Below the pieces are notes generated by a model that searched no databases, was not told the DNA's origin, and saw only the letters and a program-made list of their open reading frames with translations. Below are positions 62,401-64,000 of a stretch of DNA of 64,000 bases, in pieces; position 1 is the first letter of the stretch; each line of letters opens with the position of its first letter. Source of the DNA: Pecten maximus (Eukaryota); the NCBI RefSeq assembly GCF_902652985.1, contig NC_047015.1, positions 45,818,001-45,882,000 on the forward strand, read 5' to 3'. Made by a program: the position numbers and the translations under genes.

Positions 62401-63717
62401 TAAGTAACAAGACTACCTTGATCTTTTATAGGAGGTGATTATAATGGAGGATGGGGCTATGACCAAGGTGAGTTGAAAGAAAGATGTACGAGAATAATGA
62501 CGGCCTTTAAAGATTGAATATTTAGTTTGTTAAGTGAAGCCTTTTCAAAATTTTACCAAGCTATTTAAAATTTGAAAAAGGAACTAGTTTAGAATTATCC
62601 TCAAAGATTAGCTGAATTTGCTAGGTAATGAGAAAGATGTAAAAAAAAAAAACAAAAAAAAACTACAATTTTGAGAGAACGGACATCATTAATAGACATC
62701 AAGATGGATTATTTTGTTTCTGTTGCTTAAATAATAGATGCATATTGCACTTTCTAATCATCACAAACTGGTTGACTGATCAGACATTGGTAATATTTTG
62801 CATGAAGCATTCAATTCCTTTGATGATGCATTTGTAGCATCAAGGACCTCGCGCACAGTCAGGTAACTGCTGTTACAGTTTTGCTTGCAGTTTTGTTTCC
62901 TGTTCATATATATACTTGAACCATTGTATAAAAAACACCAGCTTTCAATGTACTATAACAAAGGGTATTTTACTATCCATGAAAGATAAGAAAGCAGTGT
63001 GTTTGGAGTTATATAATGGTTCAAGATGAGAAATATTGAATAACATTTCATTTCTGGTCACTTGAGATAGACAGGAGCTTGCTTTTTTTTTGGAATGATG
63101 CATTTTTATTGGCAGTGAAAAAGCTGGAGGACAGCTTTTCTATATATAAAATACCCGAAGTGTTTCCAATTTGTGACCAGAAATCAAGTGTTTGTCATTT
63201 TGTGACATTTTTTGTAGTTCCTTCTAATGTGCACTGCAAGTTTGCAAGAATTGACCTCTTGGATAATAGAATTTTGGATGTGAAATATAAAATATTTGAA
63301 AAACAATTGTATCATAACTCAACATTTCATTAAAATCAACTTTTTACTTGATATTTCTCACCATGTAATAATGTTTTGAATAATTGTATAACCTTGCAGA
63401 GTGCATTTGATCATAAAATCACCTTTCCACAGGTACAGATCTTTCTGGTCACTAGCTAACTCAAGGTCTGTCAAGGTAACTCTGCAAGGTTTCTGAGTAG
63501 GTTGGGGTGTTAGTGGATCCTAATGACAAGAGGTCAGTTGTGCTAACCTTTGTAGTGTGTAGTAGTACTCCATGTAAATAGCAATAAAAACCAACCGATG
63601 GATAAAATCAATCAATTTCTATCCGTATTCACAGGAAATCAGCAACAGAGCACCTATGGCAAATCACAAAAAGGAGGCCGAGGGGCTGGTGGTGGGTACC
63701 ACCCATACAGCCGATAA
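56457..63717 (+). CDS. hnRNP A/B / hnRNP D-like (squid/hrp40-like) 2xRRM + Gly/Tyr-rich protein, ~343 aa
   Basis: Exons 56457-56626, 58749-58789, 59150-59277, 59905-60060, 60398-60529, 61281-61398, 61536-61703, 62432-62467, 63635-63717 join in frame. RNP2 [12 protein letters not shown]1 [10 protein letters not shown]; second RRM KKIFCG / [12 protein letters not shown] region; YGK...YHPY PY-NLS C-terminus. Confidence 0.93.
57039..57188. repeat. 75-bp perfect tandem duplication in hnRNP intron 1
   Basis: ccatagtaacatagagaatgatgg...attataaaaca occurs twice. Confidence 0.9.
57331..57498. mobile_element. Second, inverted, diverged copy of the hAT-like MITE
   Basis: Reverse-complement similarity to 55755-55939 (cccaaaatgagac, ttgcagtttact, agaaaaacccctg). 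Confidence 0.65.
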
Positions 63718-64000
63718 ACAGGTAGGCGTAATTTATGGATTGTCATATCCATCATGGTATACTTGCAGAGTGGGGTTTTAGTGTTACAATATAGACCTTG
63801 TTATTGTGATTAGGAAGTTTACCTGTGGTAAGGTGATCATAGATGTTTGCTGCTGGTTCATCATGATTGGCTTGATTTATTTAGTTTCATTTTACGACTT
63901 GCAACCAGCTGCAGAAAGATCGGGACCACATGGCAATTGGTTGCATTATTTTGATAGTTAAGTTTTAAAAGATATTTTCACAGTAATTTGATGTTAATCT

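Follow-up and report, generated by a model that had tools for sequence, protein, structure and literature searches.

Gene structure and transcript evidence

The window analysed here, a 64-kb stretch of the genome of the scallop Pecten maximus, contains near its end a gene whose exon chain translates into two RRM-like domains followed by a Gly/Tyr-rich tail that ends in a PY motif (Table 1). From these features of the translation, we take the product to be an hnRNP of the A/B-D (squid-like) type. The transcript evidence comes from 8 of the 23 listed RNA runs, all in the form of assembled contigs. Six of these runs represent the same species; two of the six, X11 and X16, show identical joint depths and are counted once, which leaves 5 independent datasets. 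The other two runs, X21 and X22, come from organism B (word share of 0.00).

Joints in the RNA contigs support the chain from exon 3 through the final exon. Exon 8 has a strong donor (9/9 consensus) and joins either exon 9 or, directly, the final exon. The splice sites of exon 9 are weakish, with 8 pyrimidines out of 12 in the acceptor and 7/9 in the donor. The stop codon at 63715-63717 is located 4 nt ahead of this donor, and a 438-nt 3'UTR intron separates it from the final 3'UTR exon, which begins at the window-equivalent position 64160, just beyond the end of the window. A strong but unused acceptor directly followed by GT is present in the 3'UTR intron at 64036 (window-equivalent), with no junction seen. 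The 137-nt intron after exon 6 (61398/61536) has a GC donor, and the RNA joint fits a GC-AG intron.

Table 1. Coordinates of the hnRNP gene and of the elements surrounding its last coding exon
Feature	Positions	Strand	Basis
hnRNP gene, coding span, 9 coding exons	56457..63721	+	open frame from exon chain
Poison exon, 64 nt, with in-frame stop, between coding exons 5 and 6	60861..60924	+	both junctions seen
Exon 8, 36 nt	62432..62467	+	RNA joints, splice-site scoring
Upstream competitor, 13 bp perfect with 63479-63491	63390..63402	+	sequence, folding
5' arm, core helices of 8+9, 12, 10, 3 and 10 bp	63418..63488	+	sequence, folding
Unused pseudo-exon, 43 nt, acceptor followed at once by GT, donor 8/9, in-frame stop	63433..63475	+	sequence, splice-site scoring
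Shared docking segment, two mutually exclusive partners (63390-63402 or 63762-63771)	63479..63491	+	sequence, shuffles
5' strand of predicted inner helices, partner 63738-63758, loop closed at likely branch-point region	63590..63613	+	prediction
Exon 9, 87 nt, last coding exon, PY-ending tail, alternatively skipped	63635..63721	+	RNA joints
3' arm, in 3'UTR intron	63738..63858	+	sequence, folding, RNA contigs

In the tail encoded by exon 9, the PY is preceded by a Tyr two residues before it and by basic residues further upstream, the nearest Arg being 7 residues ahead of the Pro. The basic PY-NLS consensus is R/H/K-x2-5-PY preceded by a patch of basic or hydrophobic residues (PMC2408616). A preliminary description of this DNA labelled the exon as encoding a PY-NLS; the PY motif is indeed there, but with the Arg at a spacing of 7 rather than 2-5 residues the label is a loose one. 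In this the tail is like yeast Hrp1p, which combines the PY, a Tyr two residues before it and upstream basic residues, and in which the PY carries most of the binding (PMC2408616); transportin cargoes are also treated in PMC7930572. Because the tail departs from the strict spacing, a change of localization through skipping of exon 9 is something that we infer, and the tail is best regarded as a predicted nuclear-import signal.

The poison exon is included at low levels (about 1.4% in X16 and 10% in X15). The contigs of organism B (X21 and X22) cover the upstream exons and the poison exon, and their coverage stops before exon 8 at 80% likeness. In these contigs, the poison exon is conserved at 45 of 51 letters, compared with only about 80% likeness of the coding exons. 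It likely represents an autoregulatory NMD cassette. Its flanks are not complementary (z of -1.0), and the exon lies outside the duplex described below. A search with the pattern of its acceptor yields 6 matches, all attributed to chance by blastn and inspection.

Several other features of the gene are seen in its upstream introns. Intron 1 carries 35-nt inverted arms, 58282-58316/58636-58670, 319 nt apart, possibly a small non-autonomous DNA element, and, by eye, a direct duplication of about 75 nt at about 57040-57190. Inverted repeat-like copies at about 55760-55940 and 57340-57480, also seen by eye, flank exon 1. In intron 3 (59350-59610), non-canonical joints and loose ends suggest dispersed-repeat fragments expressed from other loci.

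A long duplex encloses the last coding exon

The preliminary description listed six complementarities in the vicinity of exon 9, and each is present with the number of base pairs that had been reported: 17/18 for the outer pairing 63418-63435/63820-63837, 8/8 for 63462-63469/63793-63800, 10/10 for 63479-63488/63762-63771, 5/5 for 63514-63518/63747-63751, 7/7 for 63523-63529/63740-63746, and 13/13 for 63390-63402/63479-63491. The core of the duplex pairs 63418-63488 with 63762-63837 (about 52 bp). It also includes a 12-bp helix, 63441-63452/63806-63817, with a probability of about 1.0, and is extended by further outer helices, 63390-63409/63840-63858; both are absent from the preliminary description. 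The innermost part of the structure, conversely, had been drawn differently: the helices of 5 and 7 bp have a probability of about 0 in the ensemble and are 5-6 kcal/mol worse; the helix 63597-63604/63746-63753 (probability of 0.94) forms instead, together with two short neighbours, and leaves a loop of about 125 nt around exon 9.

The outer duplex around exon 9 is far beyond chance. The two flanks pair at -105.2 kcal/mol, whereas 200 shuffles average -68.4 (sd 5.7; z of -6.5) and none of them does as well, and exon 9 alone stands out among the 10 exons tested, the flanks of the other 9 having z values from +1.8 to -1.2 (the exon-10 rows of this test and of the acceptor scoring start one base off, at 64161 instead of 64160). 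A scan of both strands of the whole window with tandem repeats masked ranks the arms of exon 9 first among 1,597 window pairs (robust z of -7.7), with the reverse strand of the same pair in second place; if the repeats are left unmasked, they are outscored by a GT-rich tandem array at 33-36 kb. Tandem repeats amount to 22.6 kb of the window (1505-52041), including arrays of 37-, 34- and 17-nt units with 90-220 copies. The fold of 63350-63900 has an energy of -154.2 kcal/mol (z of -2.3; 1 of 100 shuffles is as good), and across three parameter sets and two temperatures three of the core helices have probabilities of 0.86-1.0 and the fourth of 0.64-0.94. An 'anti-donor' pairing of 63817-63826 with the donor of exon 9 (10 bp, 2 of them G-U) was considered and rejected, being about 14 kcal/mol worse.

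Two observations lean towards selection acting on the RNA, without reaching significance. Pairing is stronger on the sense than on the antisense strand (-84.5 vs. -67.2), and G-U oppositions in the arms exceed A-C oppositions by 7:2 (p 0.09, not significant). Among the 9 polymorphic sites in the 1,568 covered nucleotides of introns 8 and 9, none falls at a paired position (1.15 expected, P 0.32, not significant); the arms themselves hold just one of these sites, a 2-nt indel within the unpaired 13-nt bulge, 63772-63784, of the 3' arm.

The statement of the preliminary description that the arms lack a transposon signature holds as far as tested. In a search that may skip very common words, a 481-nt stretch has a single match in the 918-Mb genome, and the arms are single-copy rather than fragments of dispersed repeats; to the same extent, they are not copies of a multi-copy element, as inverted dispersed repeats of the Alu-like kind are. 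Elsewhere in the genome there are 3 one-mismatch matches to the 18-mer of the 3' arm, vs. 1 for the control pattern. An Rfam search at E up to 1 across the window-equivalent interval 60600-64600 gives no matches, and the exact 21-mer of the 5' arm has none in metagenome contigs. The paired pattern of the 3' arm has 2 matches in prokaryote genomes, both cyanobacterial, which were taken as chance. Neither these searches nor the contigs of organism B yielded orthologous arms.

A predicted competing hairpin

The docking segment at the end of the 5' arm can pair perfectly over 13 bp with the upstream competitor, exclusively of its downstream partner, as the preliminary description had noticed, and shuffling indicates that this arrangement is not random. 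When the upstream 950 nt are shuffled 2,000 times, 4 of the shuffles give a 13-mer partner for either arm, and none of 500 local shuffles contains a 13-bp inverted repeat of any kind; a site with two 10-bp partners is found in 0 of 500 local shuffles and, when the whole 1.7 kb is shuffled, in 11 of 500. When the full region is present, the long duplex is favoured over the hairpin, by about 7 kcal/mol in the MFE and about 10 kcal/mol in the ensemble. Folding of growing prefixes, in contrast, predicts the hairpin with a probability of 0.94-0.99 up to position 63820, and it is gone by 63840, in all six settings (three energy sets at 37 and 12 C). In the final fold, 63390-63409 pairs with 63840-63858 (the main helix having a probability of 0.57-0.87), so that both states use both segments.

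These predictions make a switching role of the rival hairpin plausible, possibly as a kinetic timer rather than as an exon selector of the Dscam type. The docking/selector choice of Dscam-type genes, which the preliminary description cited as precedent, does not find a counterpart in the transcripts, in that none of the RNA runs examined uses an alternative exon partner.

Further local pairings are predicted in intron 8. A second hairpin, 63023-63061/63173-63211, has a 12-bp core and a probability of 0.97-0.99, and its 3' strand can pair over 11 bp with 63442-63452 of the 5' arm, which yields a second docking-type triple. The 10-bp pairing 63252-63261/63527-63536 forms alongside the early hairpin state.

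Exon 9 is skipped in RNA

The skipping for which the preliminary description had proposed to look is seen in the RNA contigs: the joint of exon 8 with the final exon is found in 4 of the 5 independent datasets (X1, X11/X16, X5 and X15), and it is not listed in the fifth, X4. The skip share is 0.27-0.49 of the junction depth, a range that varies with the inclusion junction chosen and is based on rough contig depths. In the two same-species runs compared across exons 4-9, skipping of a coding exon is shown for exon 9 alone, among the 15 of 18 joints listed. The skip form adds one residue and then terminates inside the final exon, and inclusion vs. skipping thus amounts to a protein with or without the last 27 residues. 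This part of the earlier proposal, a control of the C-terminus, is borne out by the joints and their translation.

Control of NMD through exon 9, which had been suggested as well, does not fit the positions of the stops. Under the 50-nt rule, an NMD target has a junction more than about 50 nt downstream of its stop. Because the inclusion stop is located 4 nt before the last junction and the skip stop is within the last exon, neither form is an expected NMD target; both escape the usual rule, and skipping alters the C-terminus. The likely NMD cassette of this gene is elsewhere, at 60861-60924. No backward joint at exon 9 appears in the contigs of the 5 datasets, in which low levels of back-splicing could be missed, and no A-to-G difference inside the arms is seen in the same contigs, which drop rare variants.

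Cryptic splice sites in the arms

The pseudo-exon overlaps the 5' arm, and the predicted probability that its acceptor is unpaired is 0.11 in the long duplex, compared with 0.52 when the hairpin forms. Intron 8 has five donor-like sites (7/9 or better), four of which fall within 63418-63634, a clustering with a post hoc Poisson p of 0.005. Two further unused donor-like sites, scoring 6/9 and 7/9, occur after 63827 and 63832, where the 3' arm forms the outer helix. The same loose rule also picks out pseudo-exon-like pairs in 2 of the 9 remaining intron segments. No joint to the pseudo-exon or to the cryptic donors is present in the 5 datasets, although contigs can miss rare forms, and the depth of the introns is only about 0.5-2% of that of the exons. 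A role of the pseudo-exon as a used poison exon was accordingly rejected, there being no junction in the RNA contigs.

Proposed mechanism and alternatives

These observations are best compatible with the hypothesis, to which we assign a probability of about 0.58, that the two arms pair in the pre-mRNA, loop out exon 9 and promote its skipping, which would yield a shorter protein without the predicted import tail. During transcription, the 13-bp hairpin would at first keep the 5' arm engaged; once the polymerase is past about 63830, the long duplex would displace it. Copies of exon 9 recognized within this interval (about 110 nt after the donor emerges, plus the refolding time) would be included and the rest looped out, with the timing of the transition from hairpin to duplex setting the ratio of partial skipping. 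Because the predicted access to the splice sites of exon 9 is virtually equal in the two states (0.55 vs. 0.49 for the acceptor, 0.47 vs. 0.48 for the donor), the action would be a steric loop-out rather than masking. As a side effect, the acceptor of the pseudo-exon and several donor-like sites would be buried in the duplex. In favour of loop-out, the strongest pairing of this kind in the 64 kb encloses the one coding exon shown to be skipped; against it, weak splice sites together with protein regulators could yield equal skipping. A more elaborate version seems doubtful: the early hairpin and the late duplex would form a co-transcriptional timer, elongation speed, temperature or hnRNP binding would decide on the presence of the import tail, and the flip would expose or bury the decoy or recursive exon. 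If true, it would amount to a structure-encoded switch between nuclear and cytoplasmic forms of a squid-type hnRNP in molluscs, tied to autoregulation via the poison exon.

The burial of cryptic sites might itself be the main function of the duplex, which would then silence the pseudo-exon, the AG/GT recursive-type site and the donors in the arms, or gate a decoy exon, while proteins and weak sites set the skipping of exon 9. The differential pairing of the pseudo-acceptor in the two states and the clustering of donor-like sites agree with this scenario, and decoy cassettes are described in PMC6097662 as promoting intron retention. The lack of pseudo-exon or cryptic donor joints in the 5 datasets, the low intron depth and the occurrence of similar pairs in other introns speak against it, and we consider it unlikely. 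Similarly unlikely is that a local inverted duplication, produced by a template switch or a decayed element, left the arms behind as a relic without function, with the skipping unrelated. A 10-mer in three copies and the second triple (63050-61, 63173-84, 63442-52) do suggest local duplications, and the signals of selection are not significant, but a relic would have to coincide, as the top pairing of 64 kb, exactly with the sole skipped coding exon, and the single-copy state of the arms, the G-U lean and the advantage of the sense strand also argue against a relic.

A single exon flanked by arms with some 52 core base pairs has a geometry that favours circles and editing, so the duplex could in principle serve back-splicing, A-to-I editing or nuclear retention of the unspliced RNA instead of skipping. 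This appears quite improbable given the absence of backward joints and of A-to-G differences in the 5 contig datasets (a weak argument, since rare variants are dropped), helices of 12 bp or shorter, and the very small size of an 87-nt circle. A Dscam-type choice between mutually exclusive exons, the pseudo-exon and exon 9, would account for the two exclusive partners of the single docking segment and for the candidate exon adjoining it; that candidate is never seen spliced in the 5 contig datasets, however, and one pairing wins outright at equilibrium, which renders this option highly improbable.

Comparison with known systems

As in PCCR-type structures, the intronic arms are complementary beyond chance and the enclosed exon is alternatively skipped. 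Exons looped out by PCCRs are less included, and compensatory mutants of PHF20L1 and CASK restore skipping (PMC10573301). Exon 9 resembles PHF20L1 exon 6 and CASK exon 19 in that intronic arms flank a partly included cassette exon with weak sites. It differs from them in several respects: those structures are conserved and proven by compensatory mutants, whereas the scallop duplex is known from sequence, folding and RNA contigs, and the latter is longer (about 52 core bp plus the inner and outer helices), comes from an invertebrate and encloses the stop exon. The exon 9 duplex is likely a further example of the known loop-out control of splicing.

Competing pairings (R1/R3/R4) with a dependence on elongation rate are reported for ATE1 (PMC7797038). 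The scallop arrangement is similar to ATE1 and to the docking/selector elements of Dscam1 in that a single element can pair either upstream or downstream and co-transcriptional order is predicted to matter. Those systems select among mutually exclusive exons, unlike the simple inclusion or skipping of exon 9; because only this alternative is seen, with no mutually exclusive exon used, the locus does not belong with the Dscam-type selectors. The cryptic cassette in the 5' arm, an acceptor followed by GT with a donor 43 nt on, is built like decoy exons (PMC6097662) and recursive RS-exons (PMC8605326), but has no junction or retention signal in the contigs, and its intron is only 1.2 kb long. Autoregulation by unproductive splicing is described for hnRNP D and hnRNP DL in PMC11062102, and the scallop gene is comparable in also possessing a conserved poison exon, although apart from the duplex.

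In the literature searched, no RNA-structure control of the tail exon was found for hnRNPs of the squid/40LoVe type, and no paper on this locus was found among main texts, although genome-wide supplementary tables could include it. Judging from the literature searched, proven long-range splicing structures are mostly mammalian and arthropod; the scallop case is compact (<500 nt), single-copy and molluscan, and the abundant skipping in public RNA makes it directly testable. The isoforms of Drosophila squid/hrp40 reportedly differ in their C-termini and localization. The squid paper of Norvell et al. (1999) is cited in PMC13253536, and a tail-dependent localization of Xenopus 40LoVe/hnRNP AB is described in PMC3893134. 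With squid/hrp40 and 40LoVe, the scallop protein would share the hnRNP A/B-D type and a Gly-rich tail that sets nuclear vs. cytoplasmic location, its role in import in the scallop being a presumed one. If the skipped tail is an import signal, it is an RNA structure that would determine how a major RNA-binding protein is divided between nucleus and cytoplasm. The output would then be the same as that of the squid isoforms in flies, which are said to reach this division by the use of different exons.
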